A stretch of DNA of 51,419 bases from a virus (IMGVR_UViG_3300005301_000012:1-51419), one strand, 5' to 3'. Shown: positions 1,054-47,290, counted from the first letter of the stretch. Notes: generated by a model not told the origin, from the sequence alone. Numbers and translations: made by a program.

Positions 1054-1275
1054 TTACGCGGCGCTCCAGTCTGGTTCAGTCGCTGCGACGCGCCCACGTT
1101 CCGCGGTTATGCCGAACTGCTGTTCTACGTGGCGCCGCAGGACGATGACGCGGCCGTCCGGACGGATCTTATGGTCAACTGCGAGCGAGCGGAGCACTTC
1201 CGCCTGGCACGAGCGGTGCCGACGACCGGTGAGTTCCACGAGCTCGTCATTCGAAAGAAACATTGAGTCGGACAT
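1054..1275 (-). CDS. Probable excisionase (DUF4224-like)
   Basis: Small protein FLSNDELVELTGRR...RPDGRVIVLR directly upstream of int; start set at MSDSMF. Confidence 0.8.
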   Translation of the reverse strand: MSDSMFLSNDELVELTGRRHRSCQAEVLRSLAVDHKIRPDGRVIVLRRHVEQQFGITAERGRVAATEPDWSAA

Positions 1276-1333
1276 ATTTACTCTCCAAACCAATATCGGC
1301 GCGTGACCTCGATCACGCGTTGTGCTGCCTCAG

Positions 1334-1945
1334 TCATCCGTTGAGTTCCTTCTCGGCTGCAGCCAGTGCAGCGTTCAATTCGGTCATCGCTTCGTGCGTG
1401 CCACCCTTGTCTGGATGAACCTCGGATGCCCGTCGGCGGAAGGCTATCCGCACGGACGGCATATCGCGGACCGTTGACGGGACGCCGATGACGTCGCGCC
1501 ATGTCCGAGGGGGCGCCGGCGGCGGGAGTGCGGAAAATCCAGTGAACGCGCGATCGAGGATCTGCGCACCACCGTGCCGGTCAATCGCGCGCATCGCCTC
1601 GAGCGTCGCGGCGATCGCGGCAATGTTGTCGGCCACCGCCTGATATTGATCAACGGCCATGACGCGGCGGATACCCCTACGCGTTTCCCAATAAACGGCG
1701 GCTCCGTGGTCGGCCGGCTCGCTCTGGTCCGATCGCGGCAGCCCGTCCAAGCGTGTTTTGAGGTTTGTTGAGATGACGATGTCGTCGCGGCCGACACCGA
1801 GCATGTCGAGCTCGCGCAGCACGCGTTCGCAGGCGGCAGCGACGGTGATCCATCGGCCGTCGTGCTTGAACTTGCCGTTCTTCTGCTGATGGGACTTCGT
1901 GCGTGGCCATCCGGCGGGCCATTGAAGCGGGTAGGCAGCAATCAT
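1334..1945 (-). CDS. Phage protein with C-terminal J-domain
   Basis: C-terminal VRIAFRRRASEVHPDKGG..AMTELNAA with HPD motif. Confidence 0.85.
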   Translation of the reverse strand: MIAAYPLQWPAGWPRTKSHQQKNGKFKHDGRWITVAAACERVLRELDMLGVGRDDIVISTNLKTRLDGLPRSDQSEPADHGAAVYWETRRGIRRVMAVDQYQAVADNIAAIAATLEAMRAIDRHGGAQILDRAFTGFSALPPPAPPRTWRDVIGVPSTVRDMPSVRIAFRRRASEVHPDKGGTHEAMTELNAALAAAEKELNG

Positions 1946-2154
1946 TCGGTATATCCCTTCAAATCTTCCAAAGCCTGGATCATCGCTACGATGTCGCCCC
2001 TAGCGGCGGCGCGCGTGGCGCGATCGAGCGAAGCGCGGATCATCATTGCGCCCGGGGCGCCGGCCGGGCCGATCTCGACGTAGTGGCCGAGAATCACGGT
2101 CACACGCGCGATTTCATCCGGCAATGCATCGCCGAGGGTTCTGATTCCGCTCAT
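1942..2154 (-). CDS. Hypothetical phage protein
   Basis: MSGIRTLGDALPDEIARV; 4-nt overlaps with neighbours. Confidence 0.75.
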   Translation of the reverse strand: MSGIRTLGDALPDEIARVTVILGHYVEIGPAGAPGAMMIRASLDRATRAAARGDIVAMIQALEDLKGYTE

Positions 2155-2189
2155 GCTAGGATTCCTTCGAAACCACGACGGAGACCGTA

Positions 2190-2426
2190 ATGGCAAAGCC
2201 CGTAATTACCCGTGAGCAGTTCATCAATATCGTCAACGAACGTCTTCCGGGACACCATTCCTACAGAGCGGGAACGCGAATCTTCTTGGTTCCCGTGGGT
2301 ACGACAGGGGCGGCCGCGGCTGGCTACGATTTCGAACCCGCGGAAGCGACTGGCGTCGTCGCTAACGTCGCTGATCAGGTGATGTCCGAATATGACGTTG
2401 TACCGGGCCTGCGTCGCCAGTCTTGA
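2190..2426 (+). CDS. Small antisense-oriented accessory protein, 78 aa
   Basis: GGAG RBS at 2180-2183, extended -10 TGcTAGGAT at 2154-2162, globular-looking sequence. Confidence 0.7.
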   Translation: MAKPVITREQFINIVNERLPGHHSYRAGTRIFLVPVGTTGAAAAGYDFEPAEATGVVANVADQVMSEYDVVPGLRRQS

Positions 2427-2434
2427 TTCGGCGA

Positions 2435-3166
2435 TCACGTGAGCCTCCGGAACTCGATGACCCACACCCAAGGGTTCATATTCCAGCCATAGCCGCGCGC
2501 AGCGTTGAAGCTGTCCCAAATGTCACGGTAGTGCAGGACAAAGCTGCCGCGCTGCGACGCGCCGGCGAGAATCACTTCGCGGCCTGAAACTGGGTCGCAC
2601 TCCCGCGCCCCTTCGGCGCGCGCATCGTCCTCGCTGATGTCCTGCAGCCGCTCGACGCGCACGCCGGTGACTTCGAGCGTGATGCGCGACGCCCAACGCG
2701 GCATGTGGATGGAGGGCTTCCAGCCCTGGTGCAGGTTGTCTTCGAAGTCGACGTAATCAGGCATCGGGCCGCCGTCGGCGCGGTATTCGCAGAATTCCGG
2801 CTTGTGGTAGTCCGTGTCCGGATCCCATGTGCCTTCTTCCCACATCGGACCTTGGAACGTCTCGCGCACCCACAGACGATCGCCGGGCACGCCATAGGGC
2901 GAGTGTTTCTCCGCGAATTCCCTTTGACCCATGCAGTGGTATGTTCCGATGCTTTTGCACTCGGCAATGACGCTACCGCGCACCGGCGTGGTCGGGAAAC
3001 AGTCCGGGCAAATGAAGAGGTCGCCGACCTCGACGTCACTGAATTGCGGGGGATTCGTATGGCTGATGTACGGTTGTTTCTTCATGACGCGCCGCGTCTG
3101 CGTCTTGCTGCCGTCGAGCAGCGCTCGCACCATTGCGCCGCTGAAAAGGATAGGTCGCTCTTTCAT
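2435..3166 (-). CDS. ASCH/PUA-like phage protein
   Basis: MKERPILFSGAMVRALLDGSKTQTRR, GDRLWVRET, WKPSIHMPRWASRI, WNMNPWVWVIEF motifs. Confidence 0.85.
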   Translation of the reverse strand: MKERPILFSGAMVRALLDGSKTQTRRVMKKQPYISHTNPPQFSDVEVGDLFICPDCFPTTPVRGSVIAECKSIGTYHCMGQREFAEKHSPYGVPGDRLWVRETFQGPMWEEGTWDPDTDYHKPEFCEYRADGGPMPDYVDFEDNLHQGWKPSIHMPRWASRITLEVTGVRVERLQDISEDDARAEGARECDPVSGREVILAGASQRGSFVLHYRDIWDSFNAARGYGWNMNPWVWVIEFRRLT

Positions 3167-3381
3167 GCAGCGTGTACCTCACAATAGTGCGGACCGAGTT
3201 GGTTCGTCAGGCAGGTGCAGACCGGACCCAGCGGCTGCGGGGCCGCGGCAATCGCGATCCCATACATATCGATCGTGCCGTCAGTCATAAATAGATGCTC
3301 GTAGCCGCCGGCGCGTAGCTTGTCGGCGATCTCCTGAAAAGTGCGCTCCGTGACCTCAAGCGTCGCTACCGTGCGTGTCAT
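3163..3381 (-). CDS. Hypothetical phage protein
   Basis: MTRTVATLEV; ATGA overlaps at both ends. Confidence 0.65.
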   Translation of the reverse strand: MTRTVATLEVTERTFQEIADKLRAGGYEHLFMTDGTIDMYGIAIAAAPQPLGPVCTCLTNQLGPHYCEVHAA

Positions 3382-3452
3382 CGGGCACTCCATAACGGAG
3401 GAAACTCGTCGTGCGTGCGGTCCGTCCGCTCGGCTTTGCTGTTTTCGCTCAT
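3378..3452 (-). pseudogene. 24-codon remnant resembling fused N- and C-termini of a Gp37/Gp68 (DUF5131) family gene
   Basis: Translates MSENSKAERTDRTHDEFPPLWSAR; preceded by GAGGT RBS and ends in an ATGA overlap; family match is from memory. Confidence 0.6.
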
Positions 3453-3495
3453 CTCAAACCTCAAGTTTTCATCACTGCTGCCGTTAGGCTTTGCA

Positions 3496-3701
3496 TGAAC
3501 CTGAACATGACCGTCGCCGAAGCCAAAGCAATCTTCGAATCCGCCAGCGCTGCTGCCGAAGCCAGCGTCGTCGCGCAGTTCGGAGAGTTCGACATTTTCA
3601 AAGAGAGGCAGGGCGCCGCGTACGACGTGGCGTTATTTACCGTGCTGGCAGAGCATTTCGGCGACATGACGTTGCCCGAGCTGCTAAGCATCGTCGGGTG
3701 A
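3496..3701 (+). CDS. Small antisense-oriented accessory protein
   Basis: MNLNMTVAEAKAIFESASAAAEASVVAQFGEFDIF, helical acidic sequence; start uncertain (3496 or 3508). Confidence 0.6.
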
Positions 3702-4670
3702 CTGGATTGGGCGGTCGGCGGTCGCAGTGGCGGCGTCGGTGCGCGCGATTTCGGCGTTGCCGGCAGCCGTGACAGTGAAGTGCTCGCATTCAAGCAAGCC
3801 CGCGTCGGCCCATTTCATCAGCAACCAATAGTCAACAGCCGTTTCGCCGGCGCCTTCGAAATCGCGGCAGGCCTGTAAGAACTCATCGCGCTCGTAGTCG
3901 TCATCGAACAGCGCGTCATCCGCGAGCGCTGTCTGTGCTGAGGGGGCCCCGATCGACCAATCCAAATTCCACAGCATCATGCAAAAGTTTGCTACATCGC
4001 GCGGGTCGCCTTTGTCGACGTGAGCGCGGAGCATTTCCGACAGGACGAACGGCGAACACTGCTGCCAGCCGCTGCGACCCTTGGCGCGCGCTGCTGCCAG
4101 TTTCTCTTTCATCGCAGCCGCAAAGCGATCCACGGCAACATCGTCGGGATGCTCCGCACCCTGCGCCACATTGGCGGAAGTTGATGCGGCGCGGGCGATC
4201 CGACAGGAGGCGTCGCCGGGGTGCTCACACGGCCCGAGTCCACTGCACATACACGCCCCGCGCTCGTCGTGCTCGACCGAGGGCGCACCCGCGCTGATTG
4301 CTCCGTCATCCGGCTCAAGCGCAGCCATCTTCATGCACCATTCTTTGGTGATGCCAGCAGGCTTGCTTGCATCCTTGTCGAGAGGGGCGGTGTAGACGAT
4401 GCGCCGTCGCGTGTAGCCAAATGCGGAATATGTTTCGTACGTCACCTTGTCGACATCGCCCCAAACGGTTTCTGGAGTTGGCCAGCCGGTCTGGTAGATT
4501 GGCTCACGCGATTGGGCTGGCGCGGTAATGGACGCACGCACCGCAGCTGCAAATTTGTCGATCGCGCGGTCGAATGCATTGGTGCCTTGCGCTGCGCCAA
4601 ATAGGCCTGCATCGCGCGCCATGATCCATAGGTCATCGCTCGTTTGAGCGGGAGTAGTGCTCTCGCTCAT
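3684..4670 (-). CDS. Mosaic early protein (Ea22/Ead-position type)
   Basis: Start MSESTTPAQ with ATGA overlap; contains HPDDVAVDRFAAAMKEKL...KGDPRDVANFCMMLW module. Confidence 0.75.
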   Translation of the reverse strand: MSESTTPAQTSDDLWIMARDAGLFGAAQGTNAFDRAIDKFAAAVRASITAPAQSREPIYQTGWPTPETVWGDVDKVTYETYSAFGYTRRRIVYTAPLDKDASKPAGITKEWCMKMAALEPDDGAISAGAPSVEHDERGACMCSGLGPCEHPGDASCRIARAASTSANVAQGAEHPDDVAVDRFAAAMKEKLAAARAKGRSGWQQCSPFVLSEMLRAHVDKGDPRDVANFCMMLWNLDWSIGAPSAQTALADDALFDDDYERDEFLQACRDFEGAGETAVDYWLLMKWADAGLLECEHFTVTAAGNAEIARTDAATATADRPIQSPDDA

Positions 4671-5077
4671 GCTTCGCCTCGAGCCTGGTTGATCGCATCG
4701 GAGATCGCCACCATGTCCGGCCAGTATTTGCTTTTGGACGGCCTGAAGTTCGGATCGGCGACGATGAGCTGTGCCATAAGGCCATCGATAGCCGCATGCG
4801 CTTTTTCGAGCAGCTGCAAATGATCTGCCGACGCCGCCGGCGGCTTGGGGACGTAGGGACCGTGAAGCGTAAGCGTGCTGAGGAAGCGGTCCGGTGCCAC
4901 CTCTTGATCGATCGCCAAGCAGAAGATGCGGCCGCCCTGCGAGACGAGCGGTACGAGCAGGTCTGGATTCTGCGTATCGCCGCCGATATAGACGCCTTCC
5001 TTGCCGAGCATCGCACGGACCTGCGGCTGCAGCAGGTCGATCTCTTCGGCTTGACCAATGAGAATCGGATTCTTCAC
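4667..5077 (-). CDS. Hypothetical phage protein
   Basis: GTG start (VKNPILIGQ) after GGAGG RBS, overlapping the upstream stop. Confidence 0.7.
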   Translation of the reverse strand: MKNPILIGQAEEIDLLQPQVRAMLGKEGVYIGGDTQNPDLLVPLVSQGGRIFCLAIDQEVAPDRFLSTLTLHGPYVPKPPAASADHLQLLEKAHAAIDGLMAQLIVADPNFRPSKSKYWPDMVAISDAINQARGEA

Positions 5078-5511
5078 TTTGAGGCCTCCTGGATAGCTGC
5101 AATCTTTTCGCGCGCCGCGGCGACGTCCGCGTCGGCGTGACTGGCCCATTCGGCGCCGTGCGCGAGCACATGTTTGATTAGCCAGTGAAGGCAATAGGCC
5201 TGTTCGTCCTCGGCGCGTGTCTTGATGTCCGCGCCGACGGACCTGAACAGGTGTGCGTAACGCGCCAGCTGGAAGCACATCATGCCGAGCACGTGGTGAA
5301 GTTCCGGCGTCATCTCGGCGGGGTAGGTGAGTGCACGCTTGCCAGTGCCCGCGCGTGCGGCCGAGAGTTGGTCGGCGATCGCTTTGGCGAGATCCGGCGC
5401 CGCGTTGCCGTACTCATAGCTGCGGAGTGCGTTGATAGCCGCGAGAACCAACTGATCGCTGACGGGCGCAGCATCATGTTCATTCGCAGGAAGTACGTTT
5501 GGTGTGTTCAC
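5074..5511 (-). CDS. Hypothetical phage protein
   Basis: Coupled ORF in the leftward operon with GAGGAG RBS. Confidence 0.75.
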   Translation of the reverse strand: MNTPNVLPANEHDAAPVSDQLVLAAINALRSYEYGNAAPDLAKAIADQLSAARAGTGKRALTYPAEMTPELHHVLGMMCFQLARYAHLFRSVGADIKTRAEDEQAYCLHWLIKHVLAHGAEWASHADADVAAAREKIAAIQEASK

Positions 5512-5768
5512 TTGTGCTCCTCAAATAGGTCGCTTTGCGCCGCGGCGTCGATATGCTCCGGACAGCGGTGCACGTCAGCTCCAATTTCGTGCGCGTGCTT
5601 CGTGCACAGGTGCCGATCGCATGTCTTGCCGGGCCTGACCGGGTAATCGCACTGGAAGCCGCTCGGCGCGTTGCAGCCGGCGACAGAGCAGCGCCGCACG
5701 CTCCTTCGCCCGCGCGTGCAGACGATTCCTGAGACGCCGCCGGGAAGGCGAAAGGGCGTGCAGGGCAT
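5508..5768 (-). CDS. Small Cys/His-rich (putative Zn-binding) protein
   Basis: CSVAGC, FQCDYP, TCDRHLCTKH, RCPEH. Confidence 0.75.
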   Translation of the reverse strand: MPCTPFRLPGGVSGIVCTRGRRSVRRCSVAGCNAPSGFQCDYPVRPGKTCDRHLCTKHAHEIGADVHRCPEHIDAAAQSDLFEEHK

Positions 5769-5773
5769 GCTGG

Positions 5774-5965
5774 TTACGCCGCCGTCGGCGAATAATTGAT
5801 GCCGTCGATCGGGTGGTAGTTGTTCGAGTGCTTCTGGCCGTCGAGGCGGATGCGCAGATACTGACCATCCGCGCCGGTGATGACGCCGGGCTTTCCGTAT
5901 GCCTCGACGCGCTGGCCGCGCTTCGGATCGACGCCGTAATACGATTTGATGTAGTCGAAACTCAT
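5774..5965 (-). CDS. Small hypothetical phage protein
   Basis: MSFDYIKSYYGVDPKRGQRVEAYGKPGVITGADGQYLRIRLDG, small beta-rich pattern. Confidence 0.8.
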   Translation of the reverse strand: MSFDYIKSYYGVDPKRGQRVEAYGKPGVITGADGQYLRIRLDGQKHSNNYHPIDGINYSPTAA

Positions 5966-5977
5966 ATCTGTCCCGAG

Positions 5978-6003
5978 AAAAAGGACCGGGCCGAAGCCCG
6001 GCC
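5978..6003 (-). terminator. Intrinsic terminator in the leftward operon
   Basis: Minus strand GGCCGGGC-TTCG-GCCCGGTCC-TTTTT. Confidence 0.8.
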
Positions 6004-6028
6004 AACACACGCCGCGCTGACGAGAGGA

Positions 6029-6244
6029 TCAGCGCGCCGAACTACTCAGTTTGGTGTTCGAGCTGCTGCGCGCGATCACGACCGGACCCACGTGCAATAC
6101 AACTCGTTCACCGCGATCTCGCGCGAGCATCTCGACGAACTCGGTGCACAACGCATGCGTTGCGCTGTCCGTCGGGATCCGCGAAGTGGCGTACGCGCGC
6201 GCCACGTCTAGGAACGCTCCGCGGCGGCGCGGTTCGCCATACAT
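6029..6244 (-). CDS. Hypothetical protein
   Basis: 71-aa ORF with a 1-nt TGATG overlap to the upstream gene. Confidence 0.55.
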   Translation of the reverse strand: MYGEPRRRGAFLDVARAYATSRIPTDSATHALCTEFVEMLARDRGERVVLHVGPVVIARSSSNTKLSSSAR

Positions 6245-6774
6245 CAGTTACCTACCACTCGATAGTTGGCCGGCTGCGTGTCGGTGCGCGATTGCAGCTC
6301 GGCGGGTTTGAGCGAGCAATCGAAGCCGGCGGCGCGGTAGGCGTCATAGACCTCTTTGCTCACTTGGCAACGGATGAGCACCGCGGCCTTCTGAAGCTTG
6401 TCCTTCGTCGCGGTGTCGTCCGTCACGGTGGATTGCCGGACAGTCTCGGCGGCCGCGACCTCGAGCTTGCAATCCTGCAGGCTGTGAGACGCACCACCGA
6501 CCAGCGATACGCCGGCGATCGCGCCTCCGAACTGGACCGTCTGGCCGCAGTTCATCTGCGAGAAAGAGGACGCATACGCGCCGAGAACCGGGGCGCTGAC
6601 ATTGCGTACCGTCTCGGACGTATGTTCCGGCGTTTGGCTAAACTGGATAGAACCCTGTGCAACCGAGTTCGACGACGATTGTTGCGAAGCGCTAGCCGAA
6701 GTAGACGACGTCTGCGCGAAGGCATGGCAGGTCCCCAGTGCTAGAATCATTGCGACGGTGAATTTCGTGCTCAT
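6244..6774 (-). CDS. Secreted protein with four Cys in the mature region
   Basis: Signal peptide MSTKFTVAMILALGTCHAFA, Ser/Gln-rich linker, then MNCG, QDCK, IRCQ, FDCS. Confidence 0.85.
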   Translation of the reverse strand: MSTKFTVAMILALGTCHAFAQTSSTSASASQQSSSNSVAQGSIQFSQTPEHTSETVRNVSAPVLGAYASSFSQMNCGQTVQFGGAIAGVSLVGGASHSLQDCKLEVAAAETVRQSTVTDDTATKDKLQKAAVLIRCQVSKEVYDAYRAAGFDCSLKPAELQSRTDTQPANYRVVGN

Positions 6775-6838
6775 CGTTACACCCCCAAGGTGTGTGTGAC
6801 CGGGCCTTCGATATTTACGGTATCGAAGGCCTTCTTCG

Positions 6839-7273
6839 TTACTGACCGTAGGAATAGCTGCCGGCGAGGTTGGTGTAGCCGTAGGACGAAACGTCGGTAC
6901 CGACACCCGACTTGCTCGAGCCGTAGCCCGAACCACTCGTGTAGCCGCCTGCGGATGCATTCGACGTGCTGCCGGTGTAGCTGCCCGATGCCGACAGACC
7001 GCCGCCGGCGTTGAAGCCGTAGCCGCCGACGGCGCCGGTTCCGATCGCGGTGCCGCCCAGCGCGTAGCCACCACCCGCCGAATTGCTCCACTGCGACGAA
7101 TAGCCATTGCCGTTCTGGCCTGCCGAGGCCTGCGAGCCGCCCGACGTGCTCGACGACGAACCGAAGCCGCCGCTGAACGAACTCGACGTGTTGTTCGAAT
7201 AGCCGCCGGCGAATGCGGCCGGCGCCGCGACGAATGCGAGAGCTGCTGCAACTGCGATGGTGATGCGCTTCAT
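6839..7273 (-). CDS. Secreted Gly/Ser/Tyr-rich low-complexity protein
   Basis: Signal peptide MKRITIAVAAALAFVAAPAAFA; GAGGT RBS; mature part almost uncharged. Confidence 0.88.
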   Translation of the reverse strand: MKRITIAVAAALAFVAAPAAFAGGYSNNTSSSFSGGFGSSSSTSGGSQASAGQNGNGYSSQWSNSAGGGYALGGTAIGTGAVGGYGFNAGGGLSASGSYTGSTSNASAGGYTSGSGYGSSKSGVGTDVSSYGYTNLAGSYSYGQ

Positions 7274-7330
7274 GGTCTACCTCAGGTTGGTTTGTCGCGC
7301 GGTGGTCCGGCCGCGCCCGGTACTGCAAAT

Positions 7331-7504
7331 TCAATCCTCGTTTGCCTTGTCGCCGTCGAGCTCGGCCGCGGCTCGATACGCCTCCGCGAACCGCTCGAGC
7401 GCGCTGATCGGGCCGGTCACGCTGTGGTATTCCTGCTGTCCGATGCGCCCATTCAGGACCACGGTGAGGCCAGCGGCGCGCGCCAGGTCGACGATGTCGG
7501 GCAT
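7331..7504 (-). CDS. Small hypothetical protein
   Basis: MPDIVDLARAAGLTVVLNGRIGQQEYHSVTG; starts 2 nt after the ParB stop. Confidence 0.7.
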   Translation of the reverse strand: MPDIVDLARAAGLTVVLNGRIGQQEYHSVTGPISALERFAEAYRAAAELDGDKANED

Positions 7505-7506
7505 GG

Positions 7507-9609
7507 TCAAGGCCTCGTGGTTGGGAAGGGCCACGCCGCGGCCGGGTCGAGCGGTACCGCGCGCTTGCCCTTGGCCGACTTGTTGGCGGTTGTCTTGCCT
7601 TCGCCTGCCGGATTGGCCGGCGTAAAGCCCGGTTCGGCACGTATTGGTGACTTTCGGACGGCAGCTTTCTTCGCGGCCGGTGCAGTCTTCTCCTTCGCCG
7701 CGGCCTTGGACTTGGCCACCTTCGCTGCCGGCGGCGTTTTCGGACGCAGCAGGGCAGGCAGCCAGCCGGTATCGGTGAGCAGTTCCTCGGCTTTCTGTGC
7801 GAGCTCGGCCTTTTTCAACTTGTCGGCCTGCTTGATCGCGATCTCGCCGACACCAACGTCTTCGAGCGCTTCGATGATCACTGGCTTGGGCACTTGGGAC
7901 AGAAACGACTTGCGCGTCGGTTGCCACCAGTCGGCCATGTCGAGCCCGATTGTTTGTTCAACGTGCTCGAGAGGGCGCGAGTGATCGTTGCTCGTGGTGG
8001 TGTTGATGCAGGCCGCCGTGCAGAACGCGAGCAGATCGATCACATCGACGGCGCTCTTTGCAGACACGTACGCGAAAAGCTCTGTCGGATCCTCGGGCAA
8101 TTCGGCCTGCAGCTGCGCGCGGCGCTCAGTGAGTGCAGCCCACGCCTTGCTCTCTTCCATATCGTCCGCGCTCGACGTGAGGTTCGTGAGCTGCTCGGTA
8201 GCCACGATCGAGAGACCGCCGGATCCGTAGAAGCCGTTGTAGACCACTTTTGCGAGCAACGTCGCGCACAGCAGGTCGAGGGCCACGCGCGGCGCTTCGA
8301 GCAGGTGGGCAGACATGGCGGCCGACCGGTTCGCAGTGAGCTTGCGCAGCAGCGTGTCGCTGTACGTTGTCTTCTCCTCTTCGATAGCTTCGCCAGCGGC
8401 GGCACGCTTCTCTTTGTCGGCCTGGGCCTTCGCCTTTTCTTTGGCCGCGGCTACCTTAGGATCGATCAGGCCGCGATGAATCTCGAGACTTCCGTGATGG
8501 TTGATACCGATTACGGCGCCGGCGCTTTTTTTCTGGCGATCGGTGAAAGTCTCGACGCTCGCGCGTATCGCAGCGATACGGTCGACCGCTTTCTCGGCCT
8601 TGTGCTCGAGCTCGGCAATCTCACCGTCCGTGAGCTCGTCGTCGTTATCTGCCCGCAGGGCTTCGTTTGCCGCGTTGGCCGTTTCTTCGAGTGCGGCGAT
8701 CTCTGCCTTTTCGTCTGCGGTGAGTTCGCGCTTCTTCGGTTTGCTGCGGCCGAAGGCGTTCACATCGTTGAACCCAAGTTCCGGCACAACCTTGACGAAC
8801 GACCAGCCCTCGGCGCGCAACGATTCGGCGGCGGCTTCCAGTTTTTCGCTCGCCAGCTTCTGCAGGAGCGCCATATCAGTGATGTAGCCGCTATCAGGAC
8901 CGCCGAAAAGATCGCGCAGCACGTTGCCGCCGGCGGCTTCGTACGCATTGAGTCCGACGAACTTGGCGGTGCGAAGGCTCGTCGCATCCGTCTTGCCCTT
9001 GGTGAGTGCATGGCGAAGCGAGGACGCATGGCGGTAATACTGCGGCGCGCTGTGCCATACCTTGCACTGGAGGGCCTGGTCGTCGGTTAGCGTGAAGGCC
9101 TGCAGTTGCTCGAGGTTCATTCCGCCGTTGCGATAGATCTCGATGAGCTCGGGCGCCACCTTGGCCAACGACAGGCGGCGTTGCACCACCAGCGGAGTGC
9201 AACCGAACTGAGCAGCGATATCCTCGACCGGGGTGCCTTCCTCGAATAGCACCTTGAACGCGTAGAATTCGTCGGCCGGGTGCATCGGCTCGCGGCCGGT
9301 GTTCTCGGCGACGCTTGCAGCTAGTGCATGGTCCGGCGTCGTCAGCAGGCAAAAGACAGGGTGATCGGCCGGGAGCTTTCCGTTCTGCTCGAGCAGCTTG
9401 AATGCGCGATATCGCCGGCCACCGCCCACCACGCCTTTATCGTCATCCTCCGGAATGACGATCAGGTTCTGAAGTTGCCCTTGGGATTCCAACAGCGCGG
9501 CGAGTTCGGTCACATCGCTCTTGTCGTTCGCACGCGCGTTCAGCGGTGAGATATGAAGCTGCGAAAGTGGCACGGTGATCAGCCGCCCTTCGATAGTCTT
9601 TTTGGTCAT
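7507..9609 (-). CDS. Large ParB/RepB/Spo0J-family protein
   Basis: N-terminal VPLSQLHISPLNAR, GQLQNLIV, GGGRRYRA, ENTGREPMHPADE followed by an HTH. Confidence 0.9.
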   Translation of the reverse strand: MTKKTIEGRLITVPLSQLHISPLNARANDKSDVTELAALLESQGQLQNLIVIPEDDDKGVVGGGRRYRAFKLLEQNGKLPADHPVFCLLTTPDHALAASVAENTGREPMHPADEFYAFKVLFEEGTPVEDIAAQFGCTPLVVQRRLSLAKVAPELIEIYRNGGMNLEQLQAFTLTDDQALQCKVWHSAPQYYRHASSLRHALTKGKTDATSLRTAKFVGLNAYEAAGGNVLRDLFGGPDSGYITDMALLQKLASEKLEAAAESLRAEGWSFVKVVPELGFNDVNAFGRSKPKKRELTADEKAEIAALEETANAANEALRADNDDELTDGEIAELEHKAEKAVDRIAAIRASVETFTDRQKKSAGAVIGINHHGSLEIHRGLIDPKVAAAKEKAKAQADKEKRAAAGEAIEEEKTTYSDTLLRKLTANRSAAMSAHLLEAPRVALDLLCATLLAKVVYNGFYGSGGLSIVATEQLTNLTSSADDMEESKAWAALTERRAQLQAELPEDPTELFAYVSAKSAVDVIDLLAFCTAACINTTTSNDHSRPLEHVEQTIGLDMADWWQPTRKSFLSQVPKPVIIEALEDVGVGEIAIKQADKLKKAELAQKAEELLTDTGWLPALLRPKTPPAAKVAKSKAAAKEKTAPAAKKAAVRKSPIRAEPGFTPANPAGEGKTTANKSAKGKRAVPLDPAAAWPFPTTRP

Positions 9610-9618
9610 GGCGTTGGC

Positions 9619-10044
9619 TTAATGGGTGGTGTGGGGCGCGGCGTCGGCGCTGCTGAAGATCGCGCCGAGAATGCCGGCGAGCGCCGCGTTGCCGAGCGAA
9701 TTGGCTTGAACGGGCTGCGACTGGCGCTGACGGAGGAGATACAAGGCGCGGCGCCAGGCGTCATTGGACTGCGGGTCGTCCAGCCACATCGGCATCCAGT
9801 TGCCCGCACCATAGACCGCGTCATAGCGGCGCATGGCGGCGGCGCGCGTCGAATGGATCGGGTCTGCGATGTCCGGGTCATCCTCGCGCAGGATGTGCTC
9901 CGTACCCATGGCGAATTGACAATGCGGCGCGGTATAGCTGTCGAACTTAACGCAGCCGAGGCGCTGCCCATCCTCGCCGAGCGCCACGATGGACTGCAGG
10001 TGATCTGACGGCCGCGAATCGTTAAAAATGAAGATTGTCTTCAT
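9619..10044 (-). CDS. Hypothetical protein
   Basis: 141-aa ORF with AAGGGA RBS. Confidence 0.75.
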   Translation of the reverse strand: MKTIFIFNDSRPSDHLQSIVALGEDGQRLGCVKFDSYTAPHCQFAMGTEHILREDDPDIADPIHSTRAAAMRRYDAVYGAGNWMPMWLDDPQSNDAWRRALYLLRQRQSQPVQANSLGNAALAGILGAIFSSADAAPHTTH

Positions 10045-10210
10045 GGCGTTGGTCCCTTCGTTTTATGCGTCATGCGCCGGCGCTGGGCGGCGCGCACATG
10101 CGCGCGGGTGAGTCGATAAGCGTCTCGAAGCGAAATACTGTTTGCTTGCAGATCCGCGAGCAGTTGTCAGAGAGTCGGTGTGGGCCTGCGTCGCTGCATC
10201 AAAAATCCTG

Positions 10211-10237
10211 AAAAAACGGGCGCTGAAAGAGCCGCCC
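10211..10237 (-). terminator. Probable intrinsic terminator
   Basis: Minus strand GGGCG-10 nt-CGCCC-G-TTTTTT after the stop at 10260. Confidence 0.6.
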
Positions 10238-10259
10238 CCAAAGCTCGCCGTGCCGGGGG

Positions 10260-11138
10260 TTAGAGCCGACGAGAGACCACTGAAAAGTCATTGCGCAGTT
10301 CGACCAGCGTGAGCAGTGCGCGGAAGTGCCGGGCGCCCAAGTCGACGGTGCAGTTTTCGGTCTGGATGGTGATATCGCCATCGGGCCAGGAAAGCAGCTG
10401 CACGTCGCCGACGAAGACCACGAAGTCAGGTTTGCGGCCACTTGGTGCCGCAGGTGTCACGGCGGGGCCCGGCGAGCGTGTCGGGAGCGGAGGCGGCTCG
10501 CTTTGGGTCGACGACGGCTCTGGCTCCGTTTCAGCCGGTTGGCGCATTGCGGCGATCGCGGCCGCGGCTTCGCTTGCCGGCACCGGGAGATTCGCCGGCG
10601 CGGCGGGCGCCGCTGGTTCCGGGTCAGGATGCGCTGCAGCCGACTTTGCCTTCTTGCGACCGCCCACGATCGCGGTGGCCGCTTCGAAATGAGAGACAGC
10701 GGGAGGCGCGGCGTTCGCCCAGGGCGCCGACCCCGCGGTACCGCTAGACGCCGCAGGCAGCGAGTAGATCCCGCGATCTCGTGCGAGCCGTCCGTCGGTA
10801 ACCGCCTTTGAAACATATGGATTGATGCCGGCGGCCGGATTGAGACCAAACGCCACGCACAGGTCATGGCTCGACGTCGGCCCGTGCTGAGTCACATAGG
10901 CGATCACGCGATCAGCCCATCTGAGGGGCTTGCCGCTCTGTTCGCCGCCGGAGCGTTCGCCCTTAAAAAGCGGATTCGACCACGCACTCGCCGGCATCCC
11001 CGTCGGGGGAATGCCGCCGACGTCAGCATCGGTAACGACAGGCTTCGGACGCGCCGTCGGTTCGGCCGACGTGATCGCGACTGACTCGCCGGCGGTTGGG
11101 AACATGTTGGGATGAGCCACATTTTTCATGGTTGTCAT
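10260..11138 (-). CDS. Pro/Ala-rich protein with possible winged-helix segment
   Basis: RVIAYVTQHGPTSSHDL...DGRLARDRGIYSLP segment flanked by low-complexity linkers. Confidence 0.7.
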   Translation of the reverse strand: MTTMKNVAHPNMFPTAGESVAITSAEPTARPKPVVTDADVGGIPPTGMPASAWSNPLFKGERSGGEQSGKPLRWADRVIAYVTQHGPTSSHDLCVAFGLNPAAGINPYVSKAVTDGRLARDRGIYSLPAASSGTAGSAPWANAAPPAVSHFEAATAIVGGRKKAKSAAAHPDPEPAAPAAPANLPVPASEAAAAIAAMRQPAETEPEPSSTQSEPPPLPTRSPGPAVTPAAPSGRKPDFVVFVGDVQLLSWPDGDITIQTENCTVDLGARHFRALLTLVELRNDFSVVSRRL

Positions 11139-11884
11139 CCGATGTGCGCCGCAGCGCCATGCTTGGGAAAGAAGCGCGTGGCGCGCGCCACCATCGTGTC
11201 GAGCTCGAGCACCGCCTGCTCACCAGCGGCATGCGCATCGGTGTAAAGCGCCGGCAACGCCGCTTCAAAACTTTCGCGCACTTCGTCGCGCGTCGCGCAG
11301 CGATCGCCGAGATACCAGAAGACCTGCTCAGCGTCGCCCATATGCACCCAGGCCGCATCGCCGTCAGGTAGGACCTCGTAAGCGCGCGTGACCCAAACCA
11401 TCATCACGCCACCGCGGCGATGCGAGAGTTCTTTGGCGCGAAACTTCGCGCAGTCCTGATGGGTAGGCGGGATCACGCATCGACGGCCGACAGCAGCCAC
11501 CGGACGCAAGACGAACGCCTTGTACTGACCGAGCGGTTCGCCGCAGATCGCGCAGCGCTTGTAGTAGTGGCTCGCCGCGAGATCCATCACCGGATTCATA
11601 CCGAGCGATTCAGGCAGCGGACCGCCCTGATGCGCGGTTACCATGCTCCGAAGGCGCACGGGAAGCGCAGACAGACCGTTTTGAAGAAGCATGCTCATTG
11701 CGCTTCCTATGCCGGAGGCGCGCCGCGATCGCGCCTCCGGACGAGCCCGATCATCGTTCGCGGGGGCGGGCAGGGGTTGGTCGGATTCGAAGGCGCGATC
11801 AAAGCGACCAGCGACGGTCGTAAGCGTCCAGGCGACGGATCCGCCGGCGACGAGGATCGAACCGATATAGCCGAGTGTGTTCAC
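11135..11884 (-). CDS. Cys/His-motif phage protein; may be two fused genes (internal start at 11698)
   Basis: CAICGEPLG...PPTHQDC motif; N-terminal hydrophobic segment from GTG 11884. Confidence 0.65.
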   Translation of the reverse strand: MNTLGYIGSILVAGGSVAWTLTTVAGRFDRAFESDQPLPAPANDDRARPEARSRRASGIGSAMSMLLQNGLSALPVRLRSMVTAHQGGPLPESLGMNPVMDLAASHYYKRCAICGEPLGQYKAFVLRPVAAVGRRCVIPPTHQDCAKFRAKELSHRRGGVMMVWVTRAYEVLPDGDAAWVHMGDAEQVFWYLGDRCATRDEVRESFEAALPALYTDAHAAGEQAVLELDTMVARATRFFPKHGAAAHIG

Positions 11885-12138
11885 GATTCGGGACCCTCTT
11901 CGGAGATGAGATTGACGCCCTTCGAGGCGGCCGTTTGCTCGACAAATTCCTTGAACGTCTGCAGGTTGGCGAGCATTTCGCGCAGGGTGGTTTCGGACGG
12001 CCCGAGCTCTAGCGCGCGCTCGACGGCGTGAATGGCGCCGCGTTGCACGAGGTGCTGGGCGATCAGCGTTTGGGCATCCATCTGCAGGATTCCGGCGTGC
12101 GCGCTGTCCCAATCGGTGATGTTCTCGATCGCGGCCAT
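11881..12138 (-). CDS. Hypothetical protein
   Basis: MAAIENITDW; GAGGA RBS; coupled to neighbours. Confidence 0.7.
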   Translation of the reverse strand: MAAIENITDWDSAHAGILQMDAQTLIAQHLVQRGAIHAVERALELGPSETTLREMLANLQTFKEFVEQTAASKGVNLISEEGPES

Positions 12139-12139
12139 G

Positions 12140-12406
12140 TCAGTCCTCGTCGATGTCGTTTGCAGCACGGCGCTTGATATCGACGCATTGGTCGTCGAAA
12201 CCGAGTGAGGGCTGGGTGCCGAACTGGCGGCGCGGTTGCGAGGCGCGGCGCGTACGCGGGCTCGGATGGAGCTGCGCACGCACGGCTGCCTGAACGGCGG
12301 CGCGTTGAGCGGGATTGGCGATCGCGGCATCGGGGTCGCCATCGACGAGCTGCGGCGCGGCGCGCATGAGCAGTTCGTCAGGGAGTCGGGCGGGAGTGGG
12401 TCGCAT
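12140..12406 (-). CDS. Hypothetical protein
   Basis: MRPTPARLPDELL...DIKRRAANDIDED; GAGGT RBS. Confidence 0.7.
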   Translation of the reverse strand: MRPTPARLPDELLMRAAPQLVDGDPDAAIANPAQRAAVQAAVRAQLHPSPRTRRASQPRRQFGTQPSLGFDDQCVDIKRRAANDIDED

Positions 12407-12414
12407 GGCTGACC

Positions 12415-12615
12415 TCACAGGCACCGAGTGAACGAGCACGACGTATCGCCGGCGTCGGCGCGATCCTCGTATTGCTGCCAGCCCACATAGAGGAGGCAAA
12501 GGAAGATCACGCCCATTACGGCGAGCACATTGCGGGCGATCCGGAAAGCCGACTTCACAGCGCGAGCGCCGCGCCGGGTATTGCCGGTGGGTGTTGCTGA
12601 CTGTTGGTGGGCCAT
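12415..12615 (-). CDS. Small single-pass membrane protein, first gene of the leftward operon
   Basis: Hydrophobic VLAVMGVIFLCLLYVGW; GGAG RBS. Confidence 0.7.
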   Translation of the reverse strand: MAHQQSATPTGNTRRGARAVKSAFRIARNVLAVMGVIFLCLLYVGWQQYEDRADAGDTSCSFTRCL

Positions 12616-12648
12616 CCTTCGCTCCGGTGTAGGTCCGTGTTGGAGCGA

Positions 12649-12692
12649 ATATTAGGCAATGCCATATCTTTTGTAAAGAGGCAATGCCATAT
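12649..12692 (-). promoter_or_regulatory. PL-like promoter with two operators
   Basis: -35 TTTACA (12672-12677), 17 bp, -10 TAATAT (12649-12654); AGGCAATGCCATAT at 12654-12667 and 12679-12692. Confidence 0.8.
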
Positions 12693-12762
12693 TTTTTTGT
12701 CGAAAGTGCCTTATCGCAATATGGCGATCGTCAAAAGGTGAGGGGTGGAAGACTGCTGCGCC

Positions 12763-13026
12763 TTAGCCGGCGAGACCGGAGTGCACTTCGACGAGATGAC
12801 TTGAGACGGCGAGGACGAGCTTAAGAAGGCTGATCGCCTGCGTGCGGTTTACGACGAGTGGCCGGGACTCGATCCGGCCATCTTGGAAAATGTCGATGTG
12901 TAGGGATGTCGTGATGGTTTTGCGTTGCGCGCGGCGCACACGTATTTGCGCTCTCCGCGTGGCACGTCGGAAAGCATCGAGATCAACCACTCTTGCGGCG
13001 ATGTCCTCGGTTTGTCGATCGTCCAT
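12763..13026 (-). CDS. Small protein downstream of and overlapping the repressor
   Basis: 87-aa ORF MDDRQTEDIAARVVDLDAFRR; 44-nt overlap with the repressor 3' end. Confidence 0.65.
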   Translation of the reverse strand: MDDRQTEDIAARVVDLDAFRRATRRAQIRVRRAQRKTITTSLHIDIFQDGRIESRPLVVNRTQAISLLKLVLAVSSHLVEVHSGLAG

Positions 13027-13591
13027 CCTTGTTAACCCCTCGGTCGGGTGCGAGTCCGAGGTCCGTTAGTGCGTCCTCGACCTCTTTGTCGGATGGTAAT
13101 TCTGCGTCCGCTACAACTTCTTCAATTCGCTGAGAAGCGCCCGAAACCGCTTTCTGTGCATCGCGTAGCGATGTAAGGATTGTGTGTATGGCAAGAAGCT
13201 TTTCGGTCGGAACGCCTGCGGCGTCCGCCTCCATTGCAGCGCGCGCAATCAATGCGACAGCATTTGAGAACGGTGAGTCCCCCATCTTGCCGTGAGCAAA
13301 TCGACTGAGCTCGATGTATTGGGCATTTTTGATCAGGCCGGCATAGGTTCCGGTCTTCCCGCCCCCCGTTGCCATGGCAATGTATTCGAGGCCCCAATAG
13401 CTCGGATCCGCGACGTCACTAAAGTACGCGATTAGGTCCGTGATGCGGCCCTTGGCTATGCGGCCATACTTGATCCAATCCTGAACGGACGCTGGTTTGA
13501 CGCCCATAGCGTCAGCAAACGCCTTCTTCGAGACGCCTTTTCGTTCGATGGCGCGCGCGATGGCGGCGCCTAATTCTGTACCGGTAAGCAT
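12983..13591 (-). CDS. CI-like repressor (XRE HTH), no S24 peptidase domain recognisable
   Basis: HTH SKKAFADAMGVKPASVQDWIKYGRI; divergent from Cro. Confidence 0.88.
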   Translation of the reverse strand: MLTGTELGAAIARAIERKGVSKKAFADAMGVKPASVQDWIKYGRIAKGRITDLIAYFSDVADPSYWGLEYIAMATGGGKTGTYAGLIKNAQYIELSRFAHGKMGDSPFSNAVALIARAAMEADAAGVPTEKLLAIHTILTSLRDAQKAVSGASQRIEEVVADAELPSDKEVEDALTDLGLAPDRGVNKDGRSTNRGHRRKSG

Positions 13592-13666
13592 TGCCTAATT
13601 TGACCCGTACATGGGCACATGCGGCAATGCCTTGCAAAGATGAGGCAATGCCATATAATGCGCCTC
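13585..13666 (+). promoter_or_regulatory. PR-like promoter with three operators
   Basis: -35 TTGCAA (13632-13637), -10 TATAAT (13654-13659); GGCAATGCC at 13623-13631 and 13644-13652; AAGCATTGCCTA over the repressor start. Confidence 0.82.
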
Positions 13667-13927
13667 ATGAGTGATACCTCTTCTGACGCTGTCCTGCGGG
13701 CCAGCAAATTCTTGGGCGGGAACGCGGCGCTTGCGCGTGCGATCGGCGTCAAGCCTCCGACTGTTCAGCAATGGGTGAATGGCGAGCGCCCCGTTCCACC
13801 GAACCGATGTGTAGCGATCGAACGCCTCACATCCGGAACAGTCACGCGCAAACATCTGCGGCCCGACGATTGGTCCGAGTACTGGCCCGAACTCGCGCTT
13901 CCAGTCCGTCAAGAGGAGGGCGTCTGA
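13667..13927 (+). CDS. Cro-like (YdaS-type) regulator
   Basis: GGNAALARAIGVKPPTVQQWVNGERPVP..RCVAIERLTSGTVTRKHLRPDDW..YWPEL. Confidence 0.9.
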   Translation: MSDTSSDAVLRASKFLGGNAALARAIGVKPPTVQQWVNGERPVPPNRCVAIERLTSGTVTRKHLRPDDWSEYWPELALPVRQEEGV

Positions 13928-13928
13928 C

Positions 13929-14345
13929 ATGCGTCGTATCCGATCGATGTTGATCCCGGTACGTGGGCAGATCCACAAGCGAACCGAGGCGCGCCCGGAT
14001 TGGGAGGAAGTGCTCGAGCAGCGCGCGCGCGAAATCAAAGCGTTTCGAGAGGCCGGGCTCCAGTTCCCGGATCTGGCTCGTGGCGCGCGCATTCCGACGC
14101 TGTATCCGGGCGAGCAGGTTCCGAAGACTCTCGAAACACTCCGCTGCGAAGCGCAATGGAGGGCGTTTTTTGCGGACGTCAGCTTGCCGGTGGCTCCAGA
14201 AACTGGAGCCACTCGTCCTGAAAGAACTCGAACGCTGCGATCGACAGGTCGCTCGTTTTGCTCCCGAGTGATCGCGCGACTGCGCCCTCGGAAAAGTGCC
14301 GAAACGCATCCGACACCGCCTGAAGATCTGGATGCGTCGCGATGA
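13929..14345 (+). CDS. Hypothetical protein; 3' part overlaps an antisense gene
   Basis: GAGGAGG RBS; starts 1 nt after the Cro stop. Confidence 0.5.
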   Translation: MRRIRSMLIPVRGQIHKRTEARPDWEEVLEQRAREIKAFREAGLQFPDLARGARIPTLYPGEQVPKTLETLRCEAQWRAFFADVSLPVAPETGATRPERTRTLRSTGRSFCSRVIARLRPRKSAETHPTPPEDLDASR

Positions 14346-14457
14346 GCGCTTTGAGCATGACGACATTTGATCGCCCAGCTGCTTCGCTCATGCGGACGCG
14401 TACCTCCAGCTCGTGCAGTCGTTTTTCGAAGTTCGTTTGTTCGTTCGGTTCGTTCAT
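14179..14457 (-). CDS. Antisense-oriented accessory protein between cro and the cII-like gene
   Basis: AAAGGA RBS; -10 TAGAAT at 14502-14507; helical protein MNEPNEQTNFEKRLHELE. Confidence 0.75.
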   Translation of the reverse strand: MNEPNEQTNFEKRLHELEVRVRMSEAAGRSNVVMLKALIATHPDLQAVSDAFRHFSEGAVARSLGSKTSDLSIAAFEFFQDEWLQFLEPPAS

Positions 14458-14647
14458 GAGGGTTCCTTTCCGTGAGGAAACGGTGCGTGTGGAAGCCACC
14501 GATTCTAAACGGGGTGTGAACCCTCACCAATTCTGTCGTGGGGCGCAGATGTGTGCGCCGGGCGGCGCGTGAGTTTTCGGGGATTTGCATGGTGTCCATG
14601 CAAAAAATTTTCGACGCCGGCCGACCGGTGTAGCAAGAGGTGTATCG

Positions 14648-15058
14648 ATGACATTTGACTATCACAGCGCCGCCCGGCGCCCGCGCGGACGGGCCATCCA
14701 CCCCCCGACGCCGACGCAATCCATGGACGCTCCGAAGTTGCGCTTCCTGCCCCGCGAGCAGGTCGAGGCGTGCGCCACATTCCGCGATGCCTGCGTGTTG
14801 GCATGGAAAAACCGTCAGTTTCCGGGCATGACCGAGACGTATCTCGCGTCGGTGTGTGACCTCACGCAGCAGCACGTCTCTGAGTACTTCCAGGCTGACG
14901 AGCGCGACGAGAAGGGCCGCAAGCGCCGTCAGTTGCCAGCCGACAAGGTCGGCGCCGTGCAGGAGCAACTCGGCAACTGTGCGATCGGCCAGTGGCTCGC
15001 TCGAGATATGGCGGTACGGCTCGTCGAGGAATTCTTCGCAGCGGAGAGCGTTCGGTGA
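14648..15058 (+). CDS. CII-position HTH regulator
   Basis: GAGGTG RBS; MTETYLASVCDLTQQHVSEYF HTH, GNCAIGQWL. Confidence 0.75.
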   Translation: MTFDYHSAARRPRGRAIHPPTPTQSMDAPKLRFLPREQVEACATFRDACVLAWKNRQFPGMTETYLASVCDLTQQHVSEYFQADERDEKGRKRRQLPADKVGAVQEQLGNCAIGQWLARDMAVRLVEEFFAAESVR

Positions 15059-15253: not shown

Positions 15254-15415
15254 ATGGATCTACACGAACTGATGAACGTGGTGCTTCGCGCATTTGTAAT
15301 TGCGCTGCTGCTTTGCGTGTTCATGCCGGGGCAGGGGCGTTTTCACATGCGTTTCAGCTTGGGCTTCGTCGCGTCGCTCGCCGGTGGCATTGGTTTTCTT
15401 CTCTGGGGTCACTGA
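15254..15415 (+). CDS. Small two-helix membrane protein
   Basis: Two hydrophobic segments; TGATG overlap with the next gene. Confidence 0.55.
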   Translation: MDLHELMNVVLRAFVIALLLCVFMPGQGRFHMRFSLGFVASLAGGIGFLLWGH

Positions 15416-45883: not shown

Positions 45884-46009
45884 CGTCTTGGTTGGTGTGC
45901 ATTTTGGAGATTCGTTGCGGTGGACTCTTTAGGTAACGACCGCGTGGCGCGCAAATTTTGCCATGAATGGGCAACGCGCCGTTAGGAGCGCCGCCGCCGA
46001 GGCTGCAAC

Positions 46010-46741: not shown

Positions 46742-46791
46742 GTCTGCTCGCAAATTGTTCTTATTCCAACGCGCGATGATACACGGCACGC

Positions 46792-47091: not shown

Positions 47092-47189
47092 GTTGAGTTG
47101 ATCCAATACGCGCGAAGGCGCGAAAGCGGTATTTCATGGCGAATTTCCTTTCGGATAGCGGCCGCGCGAGTGCGCTTCCTATGTGGAGC

Positions 47190-47218
47190 AAGATAGGCGG
47201 ATTCCGCCTATGCGTCAA
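47190..47218 (-). promoter_or_regulatory. Moron promoter with a 19-bp palindromic operator
   Basis: TTGACG-17 bp-TATCTT; ATAGGCGGA-T-TCCGCCTAT at 47193-47211. Confidence 0.85.
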
Positions 47219-47231
47219 GTAGTGAATTGAT

Positions 47232-47255: not shown

Positions 47256-47290
47256 ACACCCGTAGCGCCGGCGCACAGGAGATCGAGCCG

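Follow-up and report, generated by a model that had tools for sequence, protein, structure and literature searches.

When a small gene lies against the direction of a phage early operon, must the operon keep a translated path across it? The question is raised by three loci in IMGVR_UViG_3300005301_000012, a 51.4 kb stretch of viral DNA with ~62% G+C (the whole of which we refer to as the window) that is a temperate phage with a lambdoid layout. At each locus a small counter-oriented gene, here called a passenger, is spanned on the operon strand by one or more open reading frames (ORFs), the bridge ORFs, that are linked to one another and to the neighbouring operon genes. A first-pass annotation had proposed that such genes are tolerated only if a ribosome-occupied bridge keeps the lytic transcript safe from Rho-dependent polarity. 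We find that all three passengers are real genes, and that bridging in the window is not beyond chance for GC-rich DNA. The proposed design is unproven, and 'only if bridged' is wrong as a rule. The best reading, which we hold with moderate confidence, is that the passengers are moron-type cargo and that the bridges are by-product shadow frames lying between inherited ATGA-type junction overlaps.

Three counter-oriented genes and the ORFs that span them

The operon genes, passengers and bridge ORFs at the three sites are as follows.

Site 1
2435-3166, minus strand: upstream operon gene, phrog_874 family (PHROG E 2.8e-72)
2190-2426, plus strand: passenger 1, 78 aa, pointing opposite to the leftward early genes, with a GGAGA 6 nt ahead of its ATG
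2151-2438, minus strand: bridge ORF 1, 95 codons, the codon-aligned antisense frame of passenger 1
1942-2154, minus strand: downstream operon gene, 70 aa from ATG 2154

Site 2
3495-3701, plus strand: passenger 2, 68 aa, with a Shine-Dalgarno sequence; coding score 8.9
3461-3691, minus strand: bridge ORF 2a, 76 codons, its wobble positions coinciding with those of passenger 2
3378-3464, minus strand: bridge ORF 2b, short, starting at TTG 3464 or ATG 3452 and ending in an ATGA on ATG 3381
3163-3381, minus strand: downstream operon gene, likely start ATG 3381 after GGAG; coding score 7.8 for 3163-3393

Site 3
13929-14345, plus strand: operon gene after cro, GGAGG before its ATG; conserved core ~13929-14120
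14179-14457, minus strand: passenger 3, 92 aa, against the rightward operon, AAGGAA before its ATG; coding score 5.1
14342-14572, plus strand: bridge ORF 3b, 76 codons, ATGA-linked to the preceding ORF
14569-14658, plus strand: bridge ORF 3c, 29 codons, GTGA-linked, overlapping ATG 14648 by 11 nt
14648-15058, plus strand: next operon gene, AGAGGTG before ATG 14648

Coding scores were obtained with a three-periodic Markov model trained on 15 confident genes of the phage, which, when tried on 123 test windows each 90 codons long, placed the true frame at the top in 97.6%. We judge all three passengers to be real because of their coding scores, their Shine-Dalgarno sequences, and their homologues with protein-like conservation. 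Passenger 1 scores 0.4 compared with -6.5 to -7.9 in the opposite frame, and its homologues P0002 and P0003 are 65% identical over 88% with a protein-like substitution pattern; a diverged homologue occupies the same position in L005. Copies of passenger 2, each 68 aa long, are present in phage IPK, L083 and L084, with a ratio of nonsynonymous to synonymous differences (pN/pS) of 0.03-0.20, and passenger 3 has a homologue, P0005, that is 57% identical over 97%. The ESM Atlas models for passengers 1 and 3 have pLDDT values of 0.75 and 0.79, and both fall in clusters of hypothetical proteins from Pseudomonadota.

None of the three has a match in Pfam, PHROG or NCBIfam. PADLOC places none of them in a known anti-phage defence family, and the defence or exclusion role suggested as possible in the first-pass annotation is not supported; the sole PADLOC hit, of passenger 3 to PDC-M10A, is sub-threshold (E 0.0084, 13.8 bits). 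Neither passenger 1 nor bridge ORF 1 has a tblastn match in the phage collection; passenger 1 has no relatives in the viral contigs or genome contigs searched, and passenger 3 has no match in the phages or viral contigs searched. The orientation and reality of the small genes, as first proposed, are thus borne out by coding score, ribosome-binding sites and homologues. A wider form of passenger 2 reaching back to GTG 3411 is not, as the extension is not conserved in relatives.

The passengers are inserts: the site 1 junction is uninterrupted in L015, the passenger 2 block moves, and the cargo at site 3 varies among relatives. In L015 the genes that flank passenger 1 are joined directly by an ATGA overlap with no insert between them. 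The passenger 2 cassette has different neighbours in each of the window, IPK, L083 and L084; a block of ~260 bp (3443-3702) is 84-93% identical in IPK, L083 and L084, and since it is shared at this level by four otherwise different phages, the sequence comparison suggests that it is a small mobile module. Besides passenger 2, the block takes in ~50 bp of the sequence preceding it and the terminal 18 nt of the gene that converges on it, and its copies are located at 3443-3702 in the window, 3001-3260 in L082, 1821-2076 in L083, and 2966-3208 in L084. At site 3, the cro-like and 14648-like genes of L091 are ~130 nt apart with no insert, while L092 carries a different antisense gene of 88 aa and L089 carries three antisense genes. 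This hot spot for antisense cargo corresponds to 13929-14648 in the window, 7786-8490 in L092, 4265-5789 in L089, and ~5019-5152 in L091.

The G+C content of the passengers at the three codon positions is similar to that of neighbouring genes, and there is no dip at the sites in a 1-kb GC profile. Neither a promoter nor a terminator was picked up by a consensus scan of the three passenger sites, and inspection by eye identified a candidate promoter, TTGGTG-17-TAGAAT, upstream of passenger 3.

The spanning ORFs that had been described on the operon strand are present at all three sites, and are linked more tightly than the earlier coordinates indicated. The GTG start of bridge ORF 1 (2438) overlaps the stop of 2435-3166 in a GTGA, and its TGA (2151) overlaps ATG 2154 in an ATGA. 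Bridge ORF 2a begins at ATG 3691 and overlaps the TAG of the upstream gene (3684) by 8 nt; it is open in 4/4 homologous cassettes, although these are not independent of each other. At site 3 the first part of the bridge is supplied by the operon gene itself, as the final 55 codons of 13929-14345 are antisense to passenger 3. Its homology with P0008 and P0009 is confined to the N-terminal part (32-47%), the ends being different, so its tail is a read-on into the insert, and the coding score is +5.4 for 13929-14180 compared with -22.8 for 14181-14345. The next gene, 14648-15058, has homologues that are 64-84% identical in L088, L089, L091 and L092.

Bridging is expected from codon usage within the window

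Long chance ORFs antisense to real genes in GC-rich genomes are known as shadow ORFs, as the term is used in PMC8850804 and its bioRxiv version. They are common here because antisense frames rarely hold stops in a genome of 62% GC. In stretches of 207-288 nt drawn from the 15 confident genes, some antisense frame is fully open in 56.5-69.7% of instances; the codon-aligned antisense frame is open in 50-59%, and the next frame in 10-18%. Passenger 1 contains no TTA, CTA or TCA codons, for which the chance is 0.66-0.68.

A further base rate comes from the strand opposite the late genes, which carries no operon; here we asked how often an ORF chain crosses a gap of 280-302 nt with each start near the previous stop. 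Among 476-477 pseudo-starts, 38-40% were bridged when starts were required to lie within ±10 nt of the preceding stop, 60-62% with a window of -30/+15 nt, and 18-19% at ±4 nt. We also resampled codons, keeping each passenger protein and redrawing synonymous codons from phage usage, and scored the outcome with windows of ±10 nt or -30/+15 nt. Bridges as good as those observed arose with a probability of 0.76-0.83 at site 1, 0.59-0.66 at site 2, and 0.63-0.87 at site 3. When the flanks were also shuffled, with a jitter of ±1 nt, these values were 0.43-0.56, 0.31-0.45, and 0.26-0.33, respectively. With linkage restricted to ±4 nt the probabilities are 0.41-0.70 for site 1 and 0.09-0.32 for site 3, and site 2 is not linked at this distance. 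Permutation of synonymous codons within each gene gives 1.0 for site 1, 0.33-0.42 for site 2, and 0.42-0.94 for site 3. The joint probability that 3/3 sites are bridged is ~0.03-0.3 depending on the null, for a pattern that was defined after being seen. An excess over codon-shuffled controls was the comparison on which the first-pass annotation had itself staked its proposal, and the frequencies in the window match the control expectation.

Possible inheritance of end linkage from the landing junction

The bridges are joined end to end with the flanking genes as well as being open, and the junctions themselves offer a source for this linkage. The uninterrupted junction in L015 is GCCATGAGC. 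In both the window and L005 the homologous insert is flanked upstream by a C(A/G)TGA copy and downstream by a CCTAGCATGA copy, the latter containing stops in two frames. Because the junction copies flanking the insert each hold an overlapping start and stop, we infer that a bridge can owe both its start and, at the opposite end, its stop to the junction into which the cargo was inserted. Such overlaps are abundant, with the start codon overlapping the stop in 63-71% of ordinary same-strand junctions (45-65% GC bins). In L015, L039 and L038, the bridge ends at a TGA that derives from the conserved codons 2-3 of the next gene, within CATGCGTGA.

The mechanism that we favour would have no designed parts. 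The three small genes would be ordinary moron-type cargo, dropped in opposite orientation at gene junctions of the early operons, and the operon-strand ORFs that cross them would be by-products with two sources: the antisense frames of real genes, which rarely hold stops at 62% GC, and the junction copies beside the insert (xTGA on one side, ATGA on the other), each with its overlapping start and stop. Termination-reinitiation probably leads to passive translation of the bridges that start in ATGA or GTGA and of the site 3 read-on tail, none of which would be maintained for it. Lytic transcription through the inserts would then have another basis, whether simple tolerance or an antitermination system that has gone unrecognised.

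Antisense inserts in related phages are often unbridged

We surveyed 80 loci around phrog_874 homologues (kept from 89), three with the passenger 2 cassette, and 83 around two other early genes, calling genes with our own simple caller and self-trained models for each GC class; L088 was dropped as it is the same contig as L092. An insert was defined as a run of one to three genes against the majority strand, and the matched control spliced an authentic gene junction to sequence lying antisense to genes, with GC class and gap length kept equal. The uniform rule yielded 35 inserts, of which seven were set aside: three window rows, which constitute the discovery set, and four false passengers, judged by eye, in which the operon-strand ORF is the real gene (L050, L089 17007-17174, L095, and window 15260-15412, the last being also a window row).

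In contigs with less than 58% GC, 0/18 inserts (0/12 families) are bridged, compared with expectations of 0.65 at ±4 nt and 1.96 at ±10 nt, and 4/11 inserts in GC-rich contigs are likewise unbridged. Real-looking unbridged inserts with stops in all three operon-strand frames are present in L003, L042, L044, L067 and L076. We conclude from the unbridged inserts in both GC classes that unbridged antisense genes are tolerated, which contradicts the proposal that they are tolerated only if bridged. The survey of relatives that had been suggested as a check thus gave a divided result, with an excess over controls among GC-rich contigs (considered below) and no bridging at all in those with less than 58% GC.

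Before curation, the codon-permutation null predicted 10.6 bridged inserts outside the window and 11 were observed. An earlier hand-curated pass gave 8/19 compared with 4.41 expected (P 0.044), and 6/19 compared with 1.85 (P 0.0055). In the replication survey of the 83 loci, which are mostly of 45-55% GC, eight inserts passed the preset rule; two of these were judged invalid, one being a cro-like gene and the other a false passenger.

One group of antisense genes in the survey lies directly upstream of the phrog_874 gene, at 3475-4002 in L015, 3469-4002 in L039, and 3481-4002 in L038. They encode proteins of 173-177 aa with one N-terminal membrane helix followed by a helical part; those of L015 and L039 are 51% identical, and that of L038 is weakly similar. 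In all three, the start of the antisense gene shares a CATG palindrome with the start of the phrog_874 gene, and L015 has a paralogue of its antisense gene at 1601-2011. For this family (L015b), a profile search added only a partial hit in L087, tblastn against phages gave a hit of 35 residues, and a single-protein search of genome contigs found nothing.

Transcription through the inserts

The premise that untranslated RNA across the inserts would attract Rho finds no support in composition, as the operon-strand RNA of the three gaps does not have the C-rich, G-poor make-up of a rut site (C/G 0.87-1.04; excess of only 0.09-0.13 in the best 78-nt window). The leftward gene string also contains the following element.

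5984-6003, minus strand: intrinsic terminator-like hairpin with an 8-bp GC stem, a UUCG loop and a U-run, between two leftward early genes

The 46-nt stretch around this hairpin folds at -17.5 kcal/mol, and a 63-aa gene (phrog_2730) starts a short way downstream of the hairpin at ATG 5965. Either the leftward genes do not all share one transcript or there is an antitermination system that went unrecognised; ribosomes are no help at such a hairpin, so read-through there needs something else. In scans of 133, 46 and 30 ORFs we recognised nothing resembling an N- or Q-type antiterminator, as the first-pass annotation had noted for N; this is a weak negative because N-like proteins are hard to recognise.

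Coding signature of the bridge ORFs and alternative explanations

The bridge ORFs have coding scores of -6.5 to -22.8, including -7.9 for bridge ORF 1 and -12.4 for bridge ORF 3b, and the longer ORF that contains bridge ORF 2a (3461-3793, minus strand) scores -8.8. Those of the window have no match in Pfam, PHROG, PADLOC or NCBIfam, and 0/13 from relatives match PHROGs or Pfam, while 4/12 passengers in relatives match a PHROG, including all three in L089. The bridge peptides are rich in Arg, Ser and Gly. For L015 and L039, the sole pair diverged enough for the comparison, the bridge frame has a pN/pS of 1.01 and an amino-acid identity of 33%, compared with 0.45 and 52% for the passenger frame. 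At site 2 the pN/pS of the bridge frame is 0.13-0.25, hardly above that of the passenger frame, and the contrast is weak because both frames share wobble positions. The bridge ORFs thus have the characters of shadow ORFs, being antisense to a real gene, in a stop-poor frame, non-coding in signature, without protein family matches, and, in the L015/L039 pair, neutral in evolution.

These data bear directly on two alternatives. That the bridge ORFs are true antisense overlapping genes with functional proteins might be suggested by their length (up to 206 codons, in L089) and by their linkage to neighbours in the manner of real genes, and translated long antisense genes have been reported in Pseudomonas (PMC8850804); however, the neutral bridge frame of L015 and L039, the lack of family matches, and the non-coding composition with its Arg/Ser/Gly-rich peptides make this highly improbable. 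We consider it just as hard to credit that the roles are reversed, with the operon-strand ORFs as the genes and the passengers as their shadows. The frames at site 1 do score nearly alike, and the gene caller erred in just this way at window 15260-15412, L050, L025, L062, L095 and L089 17007-17174, but each passenger has a Shine-Dalgarno sequence and conserved homologues of protein-like character, the Atlas models are confident, and L015 lacks insert 1 altogether.

A different alternative grants that the peptides are irrelevant and proposes that, in GC-rich lambdoid phages, translated spacer ORFs are kept by selection because they limit Rho polarity or hand ribosomes on. We regard this as possible but on the whole doubtful, and take the same tentative view of its general form, in which the frame across every antisense cargo gene is kept open and start/stop-joined to both neighbours, such that meaningless spacer peptides are translated, the transcript is covered against Rho, and ribosomes are passed on to the next gene. 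Several observations fit it and weigh against a by-product origin. At 58% GC or above, 5/11 inserts are bridged at ±4 nt compared with 1.43 expected (P 0.0055), and 7/11 at ±10 nt compared with 3.32 (P 0.018), with the proviso that the GC split, the link windows and the removal of false passengers were all chosen after seeing the data, that families are few, and that genes were called with our own simple caller. In L089, a close relative, three PHROG-supported antisense genes take up the 1523 nt that separate the cro-like gene from the homologue of 14648-15058, and are crossed by five operon-strand ORFs of 103, 138, 31, 206 and 29 codons, each starting within 4 nt of the previous stop. The probability of such a block is 1.0 under codon permutation and 0.12-0.23 under codon resampling, and falls to 0.005-0.064 when the flanks are also shuffled, a null that deserves little weight for long gaps and is unfair where a flank hides an uncalled real gene (as at L015 1601-2011). 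L092, with different cargo in the same place, repeats the read-on and two linked ORFs seen in the window, and an arrangement like that of bridge ORF 3c recurs in L092 and L089; the site 3 locus therefore carries different cargo in the window, L092 and L089 and is bridged in 3/3. The antisense genes of L015, L039 and L038 each have an open mirror ORF of 183-189 codons, for which the chance of having no TTA, CTA or TCA codons is 0.19 for L015 and 0.008-0.027 for L038, and the convergent stops lie 33, 24 and 21 nt apart, distances that are each divisible by three and so preserve frame. The L089, L092 and L015/L039/L038 cases were noticed after the fact, and the L089 block was examined as that of a close relative, not picked by the uniform rule. 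A neutral bridge frame is also what would be expected if openness alone matters, and the read-on tail at site 3 is necessarily translated whenever the 13929 gene is.

Against selection for openness, the three cases in the window are fully explained by codon usage, the unbridged inserts extend to GC-rich contigs, and the excess is weak when all GC classes are taken together with one insert per family (7/22 compared with 4.30, P 0.10, at ±10 nt; 5/22 compared with 1.72, P 0.017, at ±4 nt). The gaps are not rut-like, and the intrinsic terminator within the leftward operon argues for antitermination, which would make bridges unnecessary. We therefore continue to favour moron-type cargo with by-product shadow frames.

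Other features of the window

The genes that define the layout of the phage are the following.

1-1053, minus strand: integrase
1054-1293, minus strand: excisionase-like gene
up to ~12615, minus strand: leftward gene string
12983-13591, minus strand: cI-like helix-turn-helix gene
13667-13927, plus strand: cro-like gene heading the rightward operon (Pfam YdaS_toxin 1.4e-23, P22_Cro 1.7e-10)

The rightward part contains replication, structural and lysis genes. Promoter-like sites are present at 12677-12649 (minus strand) and 13632-13659 (plus strand), the latter reading TTGCAA-16-TATAAT. A 14-bp word, ATATGGCATTGCCT, or its complement recurs at both of these sites flanking the cI-like gene (12649-12692 and 13620-13660), and because of this recurrence at promoter-like sites on either side of the gene the copies are probable operators. 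With only 7 nt separating the end of the rightward -10 element from ATG 13667, cro may have almost no leader. A perfect palindrome, TTGCATGG-TGT-CCATGCAA (14586-14604), is situated between passenger 3 and the gene that comes next in the rightward operon, and could be an operator or a hairpin; no U-run directly follows it on either strand.

Several ORFs of the window are misleading. A chance ORF of 457 aa (13595-14968, minus strand) runs across cro and passenger 3, and a 495-aa ORF at 3684-5171 (minus strand) runs together at least two real genes whose frames differ (~3684-4560 and ~4633-5058). The operon strand at 15255-15415 (plus strand) likely encodes a 53-aa membrane protein with a TGATG overlap with the next gene, and the gene caller wrongly preferred its antisense shadow at 15260-15412 (minus strand), such that strand calls flip easily here. 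The segment at 44732-47452 has a lower GC content (51-56%) and carries O-antigen acetyltransferase-like and tail-fibre-like genes on the minus strand, a content typical of lysogenic-conversion cargo.

DNA matches to known phages are short pieces only, in six records, the best being Paraburkholderia phage IPK at 3443-3702. A metagenome match, L081, is identical to window 1-4134 and adds nothing independent. Sequencing runs X1 and X2 cover the whole window evenly and are probably DNA. The aquatic metatranscriptome runs X10 and X11 contain scattered contigs identical to the phage, for example at 3289-3667 in the passenger 2 region and 13570-13823 in the cro region, but these carry no strand, ends or level, and could reflect DNA carry-over.

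Relation to known systems and implications

Morons are independent cargo genes between phage genes, and in lambda, bor lies against the late operon. Like morons, the small genes of the window lie at gene junctions with their own ribosome-binding sites and without recognised phage function, the 3443-3702 block moves among unrelated phages, and the site 1 junction is found uninterrupted in L015. As differences from morons, the consensus scan picked up no flanking promoter-terminator pair for the passengers of the window, and their base composition is similar to that of their neighbours. A moron-related paper is 'A window into lysogeny' (PMC7067206). The bridges resemble shadow ORFs in that those of the window are open mainly in stop-poor frames with non-coding composition, and that of L015/L039 is neutral; they differ from them in being joined end to end with flanking genes by overlaps of 4-8 nt, and this end-joining is commoner in GC-rich relatives than the matched control predicts.

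The lambda oop RNA is an antisense transcript that overlaps the 3' end of cII. Passenger 3 has the equivalent position, being antisense and overlapping the 3' end of the gene next to cro; whereas oop is a short non-coding RNA, passenger 3 encodes a protein of 92 aa for which a homologous protein exists. ATGA-type overlaps give translational coupling by termination-reinitiation, and ribosomes protect transcripts against Rho-dependent polarity. As in such coupled systems, each bridge has its start either in an ATGA, GTGA or TTGA overlap or no more than 8 nt from the stop before it, and by this analogy reinitiation at bridge starts is plausible. Translational coupling and Rho polarity are reviewed in PMC12360218 and PMC2268962. 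Among the matches listed in full-text literature searches, none described reading frames held open over antisense inserts.

Should the bridges be by-products, the message is a cautionary one: linked chains of ORFs arise readily in GC-rich phages, and are not to be annotated as genes or read as design. If instead the excess among GC-rich relatives is real, it would point to an undescribed rule of phage architecture, according to which cargo that lands against an operon must preserve a translatable path on its other strand. Such a rule, if true, would tie moron acquisition to translational coupling and Rho-dependent polarity, would constrain the place and the frame in which cargo can insert, and would explain why some junctions and frames accept cargo.

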